In this document: piece after piece, positions 38,436 through 51,700 of the stretch | How the letters are laid out: each line of letters starts with the position of its first letter | How positions within the stretch are numbered: the stretch's first letter is position 1 | NCBI GenBank assembly: GCA_048886685.1 | Contig: JBHLKM010000020.1 | Coordinates: forward strand, 1-64,000 | From: Candidatus Hodarchaeota archaeon | GTDB lineage: Archaea > Asgardarchaeota > Lokiarchaeia > Sigyniarchaeales > SOKP01 | Direction of reading: 5' to 3' | DNA length: 64,000 bases | Program-made: the position numbers and the translations under genes | Notes under the pieces: model-generated | Seen by the model: only the letters and a program-made list of their open reading frames with translations | The model's database searches: none | What the model was told of the DNA's origin: nothing

Positions 38436-41258
38436 TCACTCCATAAATTCATATTTAATCTTTAAAGTAACTATGACATGAGGTTTTAATTCTATTTCAA
38501 GATTGTTCCGAGTTAAATTAGTTATTTCTGCTTTAATATTATTCTTAGGTTTCTCTTCAAGAAAATTAACTATTTCGGCATTTTCAATCAAGATTTTCTC
38601 ATAAAAAGCTAATCTTGCATTTTGAGATTTAGATGAAATATTATAAATTCTAATAATAATAAAATTTCCTTCCTCTGCTTTTTTCAGGGCACTTAATAAA
38701 ATACATTTATTATCTATTTCAAGAAACCGTAAGAAGGGAGGAAGATAAGACTCAATTTGGCTTGTTTTAGATCTACCAAAGTAGGAAACCATACCTGTTG
38801 GGTTTAACATAACTTTATTAGAAGTTCTAATAGCGCTTTGAGCCATTGCGGGAAACATTGGTTTTAATGTATTTATAAATTCTTTTGCTCTTAGATGAAT
38901 ATTTGAATCTAACCAGCTTGATTTAGATTCTGTAGTAACCGATATTTCAAAAGTATGGGTACCCAAACATTGTGCTCCTGGAGTTTTATAACCAGGACCT
39001 GCATGAGACTTTCTTGTACTGAAATCATCACGAGACAACCATTCAATACAGCGCAGAAGAGTTATAGCAAAAGTTATTGTTTTATCCTCATTAACGATTG
39101 CTTCATATTCTGGCAATCCAATATTTAATATAGCAAATGTTCTTAAATTGTCGCTGATTGACACAAAATCTTTTTGATGATTAGTAGGTAAAGGATTTTG
39201 AACCCAATTATCTGCTTTAGGTAATTCAACATTTCTGGGTACAACATAAAAATGACCATCAGCATGAACTACATCAGCTTTTATCTTAGTTGGGAATAAT
39301 ACACGAATTCTGTGATCTCGACTGTTATTTTCAATTATAATTTTAAAATCTATTCTCTTGATAGTTTTATATAGTGATATATAAACAGTTATTCTATTGT
39401 CAACCAACCAATCTTCTCTATTATATCGATCCTCTGTAAGAGAATGAGGAAGCTTTAGGTTTAACCTCAATTTGAAGGTTTTTTGAGATGGACCATCTAT
39501 ATACACAGATTTCTCAAAGAGAGCAGCGTCTTCAGTTGAGAATCTTAAATCTGTCTGATTCTCTTTTGGACCAGAAAAATCGTATTCATCCCCCCAATCT
39601 CCCACATCTTCGAATTCACATATTTTTTCATATATAATTCCCGTTTCCTTATCTTTAACGTTAATTAGACCATCTGATTTAATTTCAACAAGATAAAATT
39701 CATTTTCTAAGAATTCTTTACTAATTCTAAATTCTTCAGTCTTGGGATTAAAAGAGCTCTCAGACACTGTAGGAACCAGATAATAAACCCTATAACCTAA
39801 TGCGGGAACATCAGCTAGAAATGAGATTTTATGGCTAACTCCTAGCTTTCGTGTAAATCTTGGTTGTTCTTCAACAAGCCAATATTGAAATTCAATTTCT
39901 TCTTCATTAAAGTCAATTAATTTAATATTAAAGGGTAATTTTTCACCTTTTGTTCTTTTGGAGATGAAAGTAAACTCTACTCTATCTTGTCTTTTCCATG
40001 GAAGTGGATTAAAAACAATTAAAACATTACGATCTTCATAATTGGAATTAAGATTAACAAGTTCAGTTAAGTATAAAAATGAGTTTTTAAATACTTCTTC
40101 ACCTATTTGTTCTGCCCAATCAAAACGAGTTTTCATCTCATCATGAACCTCATCTATACTACAACCGCAAATACTATCATGTGGTGAATTTTTTTGCAAC
40201 CATTTTAGACCAGTTAAAATATAATTCTTTGGATATCTGAAATTTCCATATTTATCGAGTACCAAACTCATAGTTGATATTGGTTCAGTATATTTCTCAT
40301 ATAAATACTCTATTGCGGTATTTCTTTGTTTTATCCACATCCGTGCTGAAAGTACGCCAGACAAGAGAGGTGAGTATCTTCCTCCTCTCAATTCGCCTTG
40401 ATATTCTTTCAACTCGGCATTTGATTCCAGTACTTTATTAATATAATATTCAAAGTCTGCTTGCTCTAAATGAGTGTCAGGATATAATTTATTCCATTGA
40501 TCGATTATCATTGGAATTTCTGGGGTAACTTCTTCATGATCTACTCCATTATTTAATAGAACGTTAGGTGTTGCGACGTATTTCTCAAAATTTAATACAA
40601 GATTTTTTATTCTTCTCATTGCTGGTTTGAATTCTCCTTTTACAGTTTTTGTATTCAAATATGCTAGATTATGATAAGTTAAAATTAGATGTATTCCTAA
40701 TACAGATGCCGCATTACCAGGAGCATTCCATATAAATTCCATGTTTAAATTATTTTCTTCAAATTCATTACCAAATCCTCGCATAAATAATATTGAGGGA
40801 ATTTCACATCCACTTATTATCTGAGGTAATTGTGCAATGTGTCCAAAAGGATCCGGTATATATCCTGCTTTCATAACCTTACCGAATTTCCTGCTAATTT
40901 GATGTCCAATCATAATATTCCTAATTAAAGATTCACCACTAACAAGAAATTCATCAGGTAGTACATACATAGGACCAATTGAAAGCCTTCCTTCTTTAAC
41001 ATATTTTTTAATTTCCTCTTCTCGCTCTGGTCTTACTTCTAAATAGTCTTCGAGTATAATAGTTTGTCCATCGAATGTGAAGCTTTTATAATCCGGATTG
41101 GTTTTTAGGATCTTTAATAATTTATCCATCATAATCACAAGCCTAGCTCTAAATTCTTGAAATGGGAGGTACCAATCATGCTTTACATGTCAATCGTATA
41201 AAGTTTCACGGTCCCAATGTGTTTCTGGCACAATTATGATGTTCTTAGACGTAACCAT
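38436..41258 (-). CDS. GH38 alpha-mannosidase (mannosylglycerate hydrolase-like); predicted spliced CDS join(41205-41258, 38436-41174), 930 aa
   Basis: ATG 41258 gives MVTSKNIIIVPETHWDRE. After removing 41175-41204 the frame continues WYLPFQEFRARLV...DGQ...PDEFLVSGES...PDPFGH...NGVDH...HDSICGCS. The ORF-track call starting at 41138 lacks the Zn-binding HWD motif. Confidence 0.9.
41175..41204 (-). other. Candidate 30-nt bulge-helix-bulge (BHB) intron in a protein-coding gene
   Basis: mRNA fold: GAC-CGUG-AA^A-CUUUAUA-(CGAUUGACA)-UGUAAAG-CAUG-AU^U-GG. Cutting after nt 2 of each 3-nt bulge removes exactly 30 nt, including the in-frame UGA, and restores GAA-UGG (E-W). Confidence 0.82.
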
Positions 41259-41436
41259 AATATTATCAAAACTATTTATTATCTAAAATTGTTTAATTAT
41301 TCAATTGTAATTCTTGTTAGTTTAAATTATTTCTTCTCAGTGCTTATTATTGACAAGATTTAAATCTCTTAATCGGTAATCTAATAATTCTTCTCTCTAT
41401 TATGATTTATTTAAGTATATATTCTAATGATAAATA

Positions 41437-42615
41437 ATGGGCACAAAATACACTACTTTACAACTAATAAACGATCTTGAGAAAGGATTAGGTGGATTAT
41501 CTCAAGCCAGTACGTTATTGGGATTTGGTTCAACTTATTTATCTGATTTAAAGCAAAGAATAACAAATTCAAATGTTAAAGGTTATAATCCAAAATATAA
41601 GTTCTCACTAAGTAATTTAAATGTTTTTAAAGAAAACTTAGAAAGAAATATTGGAGAAAAAGGTGATTTTTGCTTATTTATGATAAATAAATATAGTAAA
41701 TGTAATAATGACTTAAAGCATTATTCAAGACAACAATATAGATCTACTCTCAATCCTAATTATTTTAAGAGAATTGATACTCTCGAAAAGGCTTATTGGT
41801 TAGGATTTTTATATGCAGATGGTGAAATAAGAAATAAGTATAAAGAAAAATACTGGTATAGAATTTCTGTAGAACTCTCAGTCAAAGATAGAGATCATCT
41901 TGAAAATTTTTGTAGAGCCATTGGTCTAATCCCTGCTGAATTAATAAAGGAAAGAGAAAGATATAAAAAATATAATAATAAAATAAAGAAATATCGAATG
42001 GCATATGTACGATTCAGATGTAAACCAATGGTTAAGGATTTATTGAATATTGGCTTTTCAAGTTCAAAAACATTAAAGAAATCAATCCCCAAAATATTTA
42101 AAAAAAGTAATGATTCAACTTTTGGTAGGAAATTATCATTAGCATGGCTCCTTGGCTATTATGATGGTGATGGGAATTCGAATAGTACAAGAATTACTTC
42201 ATCTAGTAAAAATCTTCTAAATGAAATTAAGTCTGAATTTAATATTAAATTCGATGTTAAACAACAGTATGATAAAGGTGAAAAATCTCGTCTTGATGGT
42301 GTAATATCCACAAAACCTCATTGGAGATTAACATTGGGAGCATCTTTATTTAATGAGATGATTCAAAATTATCAAGATAGTATGAAAAGAAAGAGAAGAA
42401 TATTTAAAGAGAAAGATATGGTATCATATAACCGCTTGAAAAAGAAAGTGTTAAATAAAGAAAATTTACAATATTTAGTTGGTACATATAAGATTATTTC
42501 ATTAATAAAGAGATTTGATGTCTCTACAACTACTTTTTATCGCTTATGCAAAGAATGGAATATAAATACACCAAAAATGCGGAATCTAACTAAAAAAAAA
42601 ATAGAACTTTGCTAG
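41437..42615 (+). CDS. Free-standing LAGLIDADG homing-endonuclease-like protein (two motifs) with C-terminal HTH
   Basis: KAYWLGFLYADG and AWLLGYYDGDG motifs; very basic composition; C-terminal LIKRFDVSTTTFYRLCKEWNI HTH. Confidence 0.85.
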   Translation: MGTKYTTLQLINDLEKGLGGLSQASTLLGFGSTYLSDLKQRITNSNVKGYNPKYKFSLSNLNVFKENLERNIGEKGDFCLFMINKYSKCNNDLKHYSRQQYRSTLNPNYFKRIDTLEKAYWLGFLYADGEIRNKYKEKYWYRISVELSVKDRDHLENFCRAIGLIPAELIKERERYKKYNNKIKKYRMAYVRFRCKPMVKDLLNIGFSSSKTLKKSIPKIFKKSNDSTFGRKLSLAWLLGYYDGDGNSNSTRITSSSKNLLNEIKSEFNIKFDVKQQYDKGEKSRLDGVISTKPHWRLTLGASLFNEMIQNYQDSMKRKRRIFKEKDMVSYNRLKKKVLNKENLQYLVGTYKIISLIKRFDVSTTTFYRLCKEWNINTPKMRNLTKKKIELC

Positions 42616-42780
42616 TTCCTTCTCGATCTCAATGAGTTTCAGGAACAAGGATAATGTTATTCGCTTTCATAATATAGAGTTTTTAATTGAAAATCCTAAT
42701 TGAGATTATAAAAGAATACTTTAATAAAAATCAATTGGATCCTCTGCAAAACTGAAAAGAATAAAGTAATTATTTTTATT

Positions 42781-44301
42781 TTAAGAATTCAATATAGATT
42801 TTCCTATTACACTTGAATGCGGTTTCTTTCCTAATAAGCCTAATAAGGTGGGAACAATATCTGTAGTTTTACAATAATCTAATTCCAATTTAGGAATGTC
42901 TAGAGATCCTCCTATAATCAGTGGCACAAGCATTGAATTTCTGCTGGCAATATCATGCGAATAAGGAGAAACACCTTTTGTTTTTCCATGTTCATAATTA
43001 AAGTTAAATTCGCCCTCAGTAGAGACCATTATATCACATGAACGGGGATTTTTAAAATGACGGGGGAGTTGATCAATAATATTTATAAAATTCGTTTGAA
43101 AAGTTGTTCTTACCCACTCATCAATAGAATGAAATTTATTGTCCAGAAGAGCAGAAGATTTTTCATTTTTTACATAACCAAATAAATCTTCATCATCAAA
43201 CACATATTTGGTCATTTGATCTTTTCCTATCCCATAATATTCAATTCTCCCTTTCAGAATTTTATTATTTTTAATATATCTTCGTCCTAAATGTATAAGC
43301 CCTTTTTCAGCGGTACTAGCATCATCCTTATAATACATCAATTTCACTCCTGGAATGTCCCACAATATTTTAAATAAATCCAATTTAGATGTTCCTTCTC
43401 CACTTGTTTTGTAGTTCTTCATTTGATTAAGTGTGGGATGATGATACCATGTATCTCCCTTAAAGTTGAAAAATCCTATACCCCCAAGATTTGCATCAAA
43501 ATCACCCTCTCCTTTGATAGGATTATAGGGTTTTAGTCCCTTTTGATGAAAGAATGGTTCAAGATCAAAAATATTTGGAGCTTTATAATTACCGTGATCA
43601 GAAGTAATAGCAATTGCGGTATCTTCATAGCATCCTACGTTCTTAAGTGTTTTAATTAAAGATCCTATAAATTTATCACATCTTAATACTAAATTAATGT
43701 AGTCAGGATGATCAAATCCTTTTTCATGCATAAATTCATCAGTATGTGGAATATAACCTACAGAAACTTTTGGAAGTTCCATATTTGGGAAAACTTCTTT
43801 AGGATTTTTGTAAATATCTTCTATTCTTTTTAAGATCAATTCCGGTTTAAATTCTTTTGAAACAGTGAAAGTAGAACCTCTATATAAGAAGCTTGTTACG
43901 CTTAAAAAATTCCCCTCACCTGCTTGTTCAAATATTGTTTTAACATGTTTGCCAATGTCTTTATTTATTTTTAATACGTCTCGTCGCTCACTGTAATTAC
44001 GAATGAAAGGTGGCTTCTTTTTTTCTGAGGGAGGAACTGTACGATCAATCCAATGATAATTGGGGACCCCACTTCCCTCTCTGGGAAAAAATCCAGAATT
44101 TGAACCCGTTATTATATCTGCATAACAAGGTAAAGTAACACTGGGAAATGACGTAACGGTATTTTGACATGAAACACCATTAATAGCGAGTTGAGAAACG
44201 TTTGGAAGATTTCCCTTGTCCATCCATTTGAATAAATGTTCTGCTCGCACATCGTCAAGAATAATCAATATAACTTGGTTAACTTTCGCACTTCGGCTCA
44301 T
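42781..44301 (-). CDS. Alkaline-phosphatase-superfamily nucleotide pyrophosphatase/phosphodiesterase
   Basis: LIILDD, SFPSVTLP (Thr nucleophile), DEFMHEKG, TSDHG and DIVPTLL motifs. Confidence 0.88.
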   Translation of the reverse strand: MSRSAKVNQVILIILDDVRAEHLFKWMDKGNLPNVSQLAINGVSCQNTVTSFPSVTLPCYADIITGSNSGFFPREGSGVPNYHWIDRTVPPSEKKKPPFIRNYSERRDVLKINKDIGKHVKTIFEQAGEGNFLSVTSFLYRGSTFTVSKEFKPELILKRIEDIYKNPKEVFPNMELPKVSVGYIPHTDEFMHEKGFDHPDYINLVLRCDKFIGSLIKTLKNVGCYEDTAIAITSDHGNYKAPNIFDLEPFFHQKGLKPYNPIKGEGDFDANLGGIGFFNFKGDTWYHHPTLNQMKNYKTSGEGTSKLDLFKILWDIPGVKLMYYKDDASTAEKGLIHLGRRYIKNNKILKGRIEYYGIGKDQMTKYVFDDEDLFGYVKNEKSSALLDNKFHSIDEWVRTTFQTNFINIIDQLPRHFKNPRSCDIMVSTEGEFNFNYEHGKTKGVSPYSHDIASRNSMLVPLIIGGSLDIPKLELDYCKTTDIVPTLLGLLGKKPHSSVIGKSILNS

Positions 44302-48750: not shown

Positions 48751-51700
48751 ATGAAAATCTATAGAAAAAACTTAAAATCTAAAATTGACATTCTTGGAAT
48801 TCTTTTATTCTGTTTAATTATTCCTCTTTTTCTAAATATTCCATTGCTAGGACTTAAAACAAATTACATTAATCAAGAATCTGATGAAAAAAATGTTAAT
48901 TATGATAAAATAAAAACAAATGCCCCTCCTAATGCCATTAGTTTTCAATATTACAAGACTATTACGATCGATCATAATAAAGTAGCCGGATCTGGTTCTT
49001 ATAGCAATTTTCCTGTATTAATTAATATTACAGACTCCGATTTAAGATTGGATGTTCAATCAGATGGAGATGATATTGCGTTTTCATTTGAGAATAATTG
49101 GTTAGATCATGAAATAGAATTATTTGATCAAACATTCAGTTCAACCCATGCTCACTTGGTTGCATGGGTTCGAGTACCCGATTTATCTGGGGTTATTGAT
49201 ACAGTTATCAGAATGTATTACGGCAATTCTAGCATGAGCTCTCGAGAAAATCCAACGGGGGTATGGGAAAGTGGTTATCGAGGTGTATGGCATTTAAATG
49301 AAGAGAGTCTTGCGAATCCAGCCATAGATTCAACCTCAAATTCTAATGACGGTACATACACTAATAGTCCAGTTTTGGGTCAAAATGGCCAAATTCACAA
49401 CTCTGTTGGATTTACCGATTCATTAGGTCAAAGGATTGAAGTTTCTGATGATGCCAGTTTGGATATATCTAATGAACTTACCGTAGAAGCTTGGATTAAT
49501 CCAAACCTTTTACCCGTTGGCATTGGTTCTAAATGGATGACCATAGTAAGTAAAATGGATGGATCTTGGGATGGGGGCAGCGTCTCTGATTTTGATATTT
49601 ACGTGGCAATTAATGATTATAATAATTATGACATTGGGCTTTCAAATCCTTCTAACTCTTATGACGAATGGAGTTCATCGGTATCTGTTTTAAATGCAAC
49701 TTGGCAGCATTTTGTCTTTACTTATCAAAGCTCAACTTCAATAGGAAGAATATTTTTAAACGGCCTGTATATGGCAGAACATAATTTTGGGATTGGTACG
49801 TTAGGCACGAATAGTAATCCCTTTTTTATAGGATTTAATATAGCCTGGACAGGAGAGGTATTTGATGGATTAATAGATGAAGTTCGTATCTCCAGCAGAC
49901 CTCGCTCATCAGGATGGATCTATACAGAATATCAAAATCAAAATGATCCAGATTCATTTTATTTAATTGGATCTGAACAGATCGTAACAACGGAACCTCC
50001 TGATGTAGGTTACTTCACATATTATAAAATTATTACTATTGATGCAGCTAAAATCGCTGGAACAGGGAGTCATTTCAATTTTCCAGTATTAATTTCAATT
50101 GTTGATGAGGATTTAAAATATCATTGTCAACCTGATGGTGATGATATTGCTTTTTCTACGGGAGGGGATTGGATAAATCATGAATTTGAATTATTCAATC
50201 AATCATATAGTACTACTGAAGCTCAATTAATAGTTTGGGTTAGAATTCCCATTTTGTCTACGAGTTTAAACACAACCCTCATTATGTATTATGGTAATGC
50301 AACAATGACTTCTCAAGAGAATCCAAGTGGTGTGTGGAATAATTATGTTGGTGTTTGGCATTTAAACGAAAGTCCAGCTGGAATTGTATATGATAGTACA
50401 GCTTACAGTAATGATGGTACAACTCTGGGCTCTATGAGCTCATCTGACTTAGTTTCTTGTCAAATAAGCACAGGTTTTGAATTAGATGGATTTGATGATA
50501 TGATTAGTATACCTGAAAGTACGAGCTTAGATTCGGTATCTGATGAAGCAACTTTATCATTATGGATAAATTGGGTTAATTCTTCTGATGGAGGATATCA
50601 AAGAGTGATGACCACTAGTAATCGTTTCACAGCAAATCCGACCCCGCCCCCAACACTCTTCCAAACTGATGGTTTTGAATGGGCGGTTCAACCTGATGGT
50701 GACCACTTCTTTTATCCGTATGGTGGCGTCAGTACTAATTATAATCTTGTTACCGATCCTTTTACAAATAATATTTGGCATTATCTCGTATTAACCTTAA
50801 ATTATGCTACAAAAAGTGTAAAAATATATTTAGATGGAACATCATTAAGTTTTACCATAGAAAATGTACCCTCGCAATGGATTCAATTAGCTAATCTCGA
50901 TGATTGGTTATGGGGAGGAAATTTGGTCGCAAGTGCGAGTCAAATTCTTGGTAAATTTGATGAAATACGAGTTTCTAATGTAGAACGATCTTCGGGTTGG
51001 ATCCTAACAGAGTATAATAACCAATATAATCCAAATTCATTTTATTCCGTAGGTAATGAACAACTAGTAAATGTTCAGCCAGTAAATGCGGATTACTTTA
51101 ATTATTATAAAGTTTTAACTATTGATCACACAAAGGTTAATGGAACAGGAAGTCATGTTAATTTTCCTCTTCTTATTTCAATATTTGATAAGGATTTACG
51201 ATATGATGTTCAAAATGATGGTGATGATATTGCATTTTCTATAGATGGTCAATGGTTAGACCATCAAATAGAACTCTTTAATCAAACTTACAGTGGAACC
51301 CACGCTCGTTTAGCTGCATGGATCCGTATTCCATTTTTATCAACTGCTTTTGATACTAACGTTTCGATGTATTACGGTAATTCTACGATGACCTCACGAC
51401 AGAATCCATCTCAAGTATGGAATTCGGGTTATGTGGCTGTTTGGCATTTGAATGAAGACCCCTCTGGCACACCTCCTCAGATAAAGGATAGTACTATTCC
51501 TGGGAGTGATGGTATCTCTTATGGTACAATGAGTTCTTCAGACCAAGTCTCCGGAATGATCGGAGGTGCGTTAGATTTTGATGGGATTAATGATTATATT
51601 GATCTTGGAAATCCTGGAGAATTGCATATTACAGGTGAATTTACTGTTCAAGCTTGGTTTAAGGTTAATTTTGTTGGTAATGATTATTTAGTCGTTAAGA

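Follow-up and report, generated by a model that had tools for sequence, protein, structure and literature searches.

How can a GH38 gene of an Asgard archaeon tolerate a stop codon inside its metal-binding motif, and how did the interrupting sequence get there? To answer this, we analysed a 64,000-nt stretch of contig JBHLKM010000020.1 (the window) and the rest of its genome (G000). The relatives carrying alleles of this GH38 family are Promethearchaeota, and judged by these relatives the host belongs to Lokiarchaeia. On the minus strand, the gene starts at ATG 41258 with 18 codons ending in HWDRE, followed by 10 codons that include a TGA and then by WYLPF. A 30-nt insert at 41175–41204 with an in-frame TGA divides the HWDRE/WY motif. 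After the insert, the frame stays open to 38436. This part, exon 2 (38436–41174, minus strand; 912 codons plus stop), is host-lineage sequence with 90% nucleotide identity to the intron-free sister allele G227, and it encodes an α-mannosidase/mannosylglycerate-hydrolase-like protein. The Pfam GH38N, mid, C and C2 domains are all present, the closest solved structures are the bacterial GH38 enzymes 3LVT and 2WYH, and in a profile search the score was below the mannosylglycerate hydrolase cut-off. These searches used the separate exons and intron-free orthologs rather than the joined (spliced) protein. The gene is the sole GH38 gene in the whole assembly. Zinc ligands and nucleophile are present, HWD in exon 1 and the nucleophile motif DPFG in exon 2. 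We take HWD, following established GH38 chemistry, to provide the His and Asp zinc ligands. Because exon 1 carries them, the product called from GTG 41138 should be inactive, as judged from its sequence. A stop-containing 30-nt insert within HWDRE-WY, an intact enzyme downstream and concealment by a later called start had been proposed in a sequence-only reading of this DNA. All three were borne out: most orthologs lack exactly those 30 nt, the downstream GH38 domains are complete, and gene callers truncate such interrupted genes, so that the zinc ligands are lost from view.

We then compared the site among relatives with a search pattern that fixed exon codons only. It retrieved 96 junctions in 92 of 133 family genomes; 80 were uninterrupted, and 16, from four genera, carried an insert. 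All 16 inserts were 30 nt long, a multiple of three, occupied the identical site and contained an in-frame stop of variable identity and position (TGA, TAA or TAG at codons 3–8, some doubled). The constant stop possibly reflects selection against translating unspliced mRNA, and possibly just AT richness. Seven metagenome contigs, at least one of them identical to a genome already counted, also contained the insert; the pattern used for them fixed part of the intron, and they were left out of the pair statistics. The only circumstance favouring an assembly or sequencing artefact is that the genome is metagenome-assembled. Recurrence, with sequence variation, in 16 independent assemblies of four genera and in metagenome contigs makes an artefact vanishingly unlikely.

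Another explanation is that the insert is a protective spacer that inactivates GH38, leaving recent pseudogenes or an N-truncated protein from GTG 41138. If homing was recent, decay would have had little time to accumulate, and the dN/dS pairs include intron-free history. No decay of the downstream gene was seen, however: the frames after the insert were full-length in 16/16 alleles (908–915 codons), and dN/dS of the intron-bearing genes was 0.12–0.19, like that of intron-free pairs, and 0.125–0.138 for intron–intron pairs, values that point to purifying selection on exon 2. In addition, the diverged introns of G259, G264 and G232 retain the bulge-helix-bulge (BHB) fold described below, and a truncated product would lack two zinc ligands in what is the sole GH38 gene. 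Inactivation is therefore improbable.

To examine how the insert could be removed, we analysed the pairing around it in the 16 alleles. The BHB spans 41173–41211 on the minus strand. Its 4-bp central helix is formed by CGUG (41210–41207) and CAUG (41180–41177), and bulges of 3 nt each lie on opposite strands (41206–41204 and 41176–41174). On the intron side, 41203–41197 pairs with 41187–41181 in a 7-bp stem; on the exon side, this allele has one C-G closing pair (41211/41173). Cutting after the second nucleotide of each bulge excises exactly 41175–41204, and the resulting junction equals the intron-free ortholog sequence in all intron alleles. The geometry and the effect of the EndA cut rule are thus as first described. 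The fold by itself is unremarkable. Its folding energy relative to shuffled sequences was at chance level (z = −0.5 to +1.2) and was set aside as evidence; for this allele, the minimum-energy fold is a different one, about 3 kcal/mol below the BHB, a competing exon pairing being more stable. BHB shape alone was also set aside, being common by chance: in AT-rich DNA of this kind, every 4 kb holds several loose BHB shapes, and a strict scan of this genome gave 274 matches. Therefore, the case rests on comparative data.

The comparison showed that the pairing is kept across orthologs, with compensatory changes. The central helix was paired in 64/64 cells (16 alleles), with G-U/G-C and U-A/U-G exchanges. 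For the intron stem, 91% of cells were paired, compared with 21–51% for slid-register controls, and both partners have changed in five of its pairs. Cells with changes on both sides numbered 14 versus 3.4 in shuffles; the relatedness of the alleles inflates the shuffle test, and the slid-register control is for this reason the fairer one. Across alleles, the flanking helix on the intron side has 7–8 bp with covariation, and that on the exon side has one invariant C-G pair followed by mismatches. The structure thus reads as a relaxed form of the BHB intron boundary. A nearby exon-side UGGGA/UCCCA helix had also been proposed. It is complete, with all four pairs, in 15/16 intron alleles and in 29/71 intron-free ones, but the helix is largely dictated by codons. 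The D-R-E codons, which build the helix and bulge, are GAC CGT GAA in 16/16 intron alleles; among intron-free alleles, all six Arg codons occur, and only 11/71 have CGT. Part of this codon fixation could stem from co-conversion instead of selection on the helix. No Rfam match was found in 41000–42900, and the 30-nt insert has no group I or group II ribozyme core. A search of this genome at up to 3 mismatches found no second copy of the intron, and copying from elsewhere in the genome was rejected on this basis.

The host has the machinery that such an intron would require. Its genome encodes an intact RtcB and two EndA paralogs that score above the TIGR00324 cut-off. One EndA has the Tyr-His-Lys triad; the second lacks the His, and from knowledge of the family we take it to be the structural subunit. 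Spliced transcripts were sought indirectly, through transcript-derived proteins in protein databases, and only intron-free DNA alleles were found. The best candidate, P0039, was rejected because its D-R codons differ and mark it as an intron-free allele; three further candidates were not attributable to any intron allele. Because no transcript was found, we infer splicing from the exact site, the covariation, the intact exon 2 and the presence of EndA and RtcB. Together these support the initial proposal of an EndA-spliced mRNA intron in an Asgard metabolic gene, and they indicate that the 30-nt insert is very likely an EndA/RtcB-spliced BHB intron. It could instead be supposed that the 30 nt stay in the mRNA and that the ribosome skips them, by bypassing of the gene 60 type, or reads through the stop. 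The insert length is divisible by three, and bypassing operates in T4 MobA/gene 60, the closest analogue in architecture. Against this, take-off and landing codons do not match, since GAA immediately precedes the Trp codon in only 1/16 alleles; the stops, variable and sometimes doubled, are not adjacent to a take-off codon; and the conserved pairing spans the exon–intron border in exact EndA geometry. We consider retention in the mRNA highly improbable. Selenocysteine or tryptophan readthrough of TGA was rejected, since other alleles have TAA or TAG.

The first reading recognized the intron correctly but missed its surroundings, an endonuclease cassette and a replacement exon. The intron (41175–41204, minus strand) is the right end of a 1,445-nt cassette (41175–42619) that consists of an endonuclease gene, intergenic DNA, replacement exon 1 and the intron. 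Replacement exon 1 (41205–41258, minus strand), which has 18 codons and includes the zinc ligands of HWD, is cassette-borne: it is 98% identical to the replacement exon of G004, although the GH38 bodies are about 60% identical, and 73% identical to exon 1 of its own sister G227. The divergent intergenic region (41259–41436) lies within a tract shared by G000 and G004 with 82.5% identity over about 2 kb. Promoters of the replacement exon and the endonuclease presumably lie here; a sigma-70 promoter scan gave chance-level results.

The endonuclease gene (41437–42615, plus strand) is antisense to GH38, stands head to head with it and encodes a free-standing double-motif LAGLIDADG protein of 392 aa (Pfam LAGLIDADG_3). 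The motifs are at residues 121 and 237, and the acidic residues D128 and D245 are present; the protein also has an N-terminal helical region and a C-terminal HTH-like region. Sequence searches against PDB and NCBIfam gave no match. A single-sequence structure prediction was discarded (pLDDT 40). An alignment-based model (pLDDT 88) matched I-AniI, I-SceI, I-DmoI and I-Tsp061I, and in Foldseek its best 50 matches were all LAGLIDADG proteins (E-values from 1e-5 to 9e-4; target-normalized TM scores of at most 0.62). Among cassette copies, the endonuclease dN/dS was 0.18–0.25, indicating purifying selection.

At the left end of the cassette lies the displaced native exon 1 (42620–42670, minus strand), in which a TGG has become TGA. 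It lies four bases past the endonuclease stop, terminates exactly at the E/W junction and shares 93% identity with the exon 1 of G227, the intron-free sister. The same stranded exon is found in G004, where it has decayed, and in G243, L057 and L058, where it is intact; those of G243 and L058 are 98–100% identical to their intron-free sisters. In G000 and G004, the replacement exon remains coding while the displaced exon decays. Because the stranded exon matches the intron-free sister and the working exon matches that of the distant G004, the sequences indicate that a 1,445-nt unit has been inserted at the intron site. One large intron reaching from the displaced exon to the 3' splice site was rejected, as the displaced exon contains a stop and the central helix cannot be built from its end. 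Outside the cassette, an alkaline-phosphatase-family gene (42781–44301, minus strand) is the native upstream neighbour of GH38; in many intron-free relatives it lies directly upstream. Three intron-free GH38 alleles, G247, G269 and G272a (L116, L109, L110), have an exon 1 of the cassette type and the Asp and Arg codons of intron alleles. They represent either the cassette source lineage or products of precise intron loss.

To determine whether the intron and the endonuclease spread together, we compared their distributions and phylogenies. Endonuclease matches with at least 55% identity numbered only six in the 133 family genomes, all directly upstream of an intron-bearing GH38 gene. This subfamily was found beside intron-free GH38 at 0/71 loci, and 10/16 intron alleles have no endonuclease. 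In the tree of GH38 bodies, most intron alleles have an intron-free sister, intron presence requires 15 state changes for 16 tips, and a single intron clade was rejected (p-AU 8e-6). As reconstructed from the sequences, the endonuclease and host GH38 trees disagree. L057 and G243 have GH38 genes that are 93% identical and endonucleases that are 57% identical; L057 and G004 have endonucleases that are 86% identical and GH38 genes in distant clades. The foreign sequence stops just inside exon 2, and in five distinct alleles the intron site marks both ends of the cassette. The intron–endonuclease association gave a sign-test p of 0.03–0.06 with only 12 independent pairs; the shared cassette boundary is a stronger argument than this borderline association. 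The intron site is the most conserved 7-codon window of the GH38 gene (rank 1/922), and high conservation of the site is typical of homing targets.

The loci form a series: an empty allele, a complete cassette with stranded exon, an eroded cassette and intron only. Degenerate endonucleases include that of G004, which contains stops, and those of G232, G244 and G264, which are truncated and lack the displaced-exon scar. In G242, an intron-only allele, exon 1 equals that of its sister G252 except near the junction (last codons).

An intron that is real and spliced could also have spread without this endonuclease, which would then be a separate, chance neighbouring insertion; the intron may in that case be an ancient gain followed by many precise losses, or have moved by ordinary recombination. 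The endonuclease-free majority of intron alleles fits this, as do the intron-free alleles that retain the same D-R-E codons, which would be expected from precise loss, and some endonuclease relatives adjoin uninterrupted genes. Loss alone, however, needs many independent precise deletions, given the 71 intron-free alleles sampled and the 15 changes. The far boundary of the cassette falls exactly at the intron site in five alleles, the stranded exons match intron-free sisters, and the endonuclease subfamily never occurs beside intron-free GH38. We consider spread without the endonuclease unlikely. Instead, the host-spliced BHB intron is probably the self-protection module of a homing cassette, and the cassette would therefore explain how the intron arrived in GH38.

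We propose the following mechanism. The pre-mRNA would start at the cassette's own promoter and fold into the BHB. The two-subunit EndA would cut after the second nucleotide of each bulge, and ligation of the 18-codon exon and exon 2 by RtcB would re-create the zinc-binding motif HWDREWY. The LAGLIDADG enzyme would cut intron-free GH38 alleles at or beside the E/W junction, and repair would proceed from a cassette-bearing donor with exon 2 as the right arm. The outcome would depend on where the left arm paired in the donor: pairing at or beyond the displaced exon would copy all 1,445 nt of the unit and strand the recipient exon 1, whereas pairing at the replacement exon would transfer no more than the intron and a few bases beside it. 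Judged by this geometry, the intron would interrupt the regenerated target and thus prevent self-cutting. Splicing by host EndA/RtcB would keep the enzyme functional and make the intron nearly cost-free, and the endonuclease and the scar would erode afterwards.

Previous studies have described the components of this arrangement separately. The cbf5 pre-mRNA of Desulfurococcales and Sulfolobales contains a BHB intron (Watanabe, 2002; Yokobori, 2009, PMC2738675), which is 16–44 nt long, ORF-less, cut between bulge nucleotides 2 and 3 and found in hosts with two-subunit EndA; according to the authors, it is too short to encode an endonuclease and its origin is unclear (PMC2738675). The GH38 intron is similarly a short, ORF-less intron with BHB-like boundaries at a catalytically critical codon region, in a host with two-subunit EndA. 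It differs in lying in a sugar-catabolic gene of an Asgard host, where splicing is predicted from sequence, and in being patchy, repeatedly and recently gained and tied to a homing endonuclease, whereas the cbf5 intron is largely inherited. The BHB intron in the 5' UTR of Haloferax HVO_1309 is processed by EndA in an mRNA (PMC7714728); unlike that intron, which is outside the coding sequence and has no endonuclease described, the GH38 intron lies within the coding sequence and is accompanied by one. Splicing within an archaeal coding sequence was found described only for cbf5 (PMC2738675, PMC7714728). In the literature covered, which largely excludes subscription journals, neither Asgard coding-sequence BHB introns nor such an archaeal cassette was reported.

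The T4 MobA/gene 60 element, as described in a preprint that cites the primary T4 work, is of ~1.1–1.4 kb, like the GH38 cassette, and has a free-standing endonuclease and an insert that blocks self-cleavage (bioRxiv 10.1101/2022.08.31.505936). The GH38 cassette shares the element-encoded replacement of host coding sequence, a short insert (presumably protective here), repeated independent insertions at one conserved site and an insert that outlives endonuclease decay. MobA is an HNH enzyme of a phage, whereas the GH38 cassette has a LAGLIDADG enzyme on a cellular archaeal chromosome; gene 60 is split into two proteins and uses ribosomal bypassing, whereas the GH38 insert is probably spliced and the gene restored whole. 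In phage collaborative homing, free-standing endonucleases act with ORF-less group I introns, e.g. in cyanophage psbA (PMC3984707). Here too, one conserved site is shared by a free-standing endonuclease and an ORF-less intron, but the intron is a 30-nt, probably protein-spliced BHB intron rather than a ribozyme, and exon duplication and displacement are involved.

Archaeal rRNA BHB introns encode LAGLIDADG enzymes such as I-DmoI and I-Tsp061I. The GH38 locus likewise combines a BHB intron with a double-motif LAGLIDADG fold, as predicted by modelling. Unlike those enzymes, the GH38-locus enzyme is encoded outside the intron and antisense to it, presumably targets an mRNA gene and has ~12–17% sequence identity to them. 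An October 2026 preprint on Asgard tRNA introns finds no general arrival route, calls this the "central open problem" and leaves homing unmentioned (10.64898/2026.10.13.758758). The GH38 cassette offers a concrete, testable route for tiny introns into archaeal protein genes. The locus provides an intact enzyme and a defined candidate target of ~20 bp, so that splicing and spread can be tested with purified components. It would also mean that, among prokaryotes, the nearest relatives of eukaryotes are able to harbour introns in ordinary metabolic mRNAs and to spread them.

We also examined the genes next to members of the wider endonuclease family. A neighbouring gene was broken by a short insert at 20/67 alignable loci, compared with 1 doubtful case in 55 controls; about five of the 20 appear to duplicate a locus already in the set, and the controls all came from one neighbourhood. 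BHBs were found for only some of the 20. The broken genes include those for the P-loops of EF-1α and aIF2-γ, an aldolase and a RuBisCO-like protein. We lean slightly towards the view that this free-standing LAGLIDADG family generally drives the gain of introns by Asgard protein genes. If so, each subfamily would target one gene's conserved motif and travel with a protecting host-spliced mini-intron; the intron would outlast the decayed enzyme, which would account for many ORF-less archaeal introns.

Several individual loci were recorded. In L067, L068, L070 and L089, an EF-1α gene directly downstream of an endonuclease relative carries a 32–33-nt BHB-shaped insert in the GHIDHGK P-loop; in L070 a duplicated 39-nt stretch flanks the endonuclease gene. 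EF-1α of G000 is uninterrupted. Short inserts, mostly of 29–33 nt, were also seen beside family members in L069, L078, L160 and L175 (aIF2-γ), L080/L166 (aldolase-like), L075/L165 (RNA polymerase A'), L084 and L181 (small GTPase, several inserts), L090/L187 (insert and duplicated 3' end), and L169, L174 and L209. No tRNA genes were called beside the best 30 endonuclease relatives. A second family member in G000 (contig C16, 73459–74634; L238) lies just downstream of two tRNA genes, Ser-TGA and Lys-CTT, that ARAGORN miscalls or misses; on visual inspection both tRNA genes seem to contain introns, that of Lys-CTT being in the T loop.

A scan of G000 for other coding sequences interrupted by BHB-flanked inserts, suggested in the first reading, produced unvalidated candidates: strict BHBs whose removal joins two frames (C43:1121–1149, C4:173543–173564 and C6:106078–106119, all minus strand). 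G000 also has a second 30-nt insert, in a phosphofructokinase-like gene (contig C16, ~51416–51445, minus strand; L236). This insert contains stops and lies in the GGDDT motif; its exon helix is 4 bp and its intron stem 9 bp long, and the central helix is weak. It is absent in L202 and L206 and is also present in L203.
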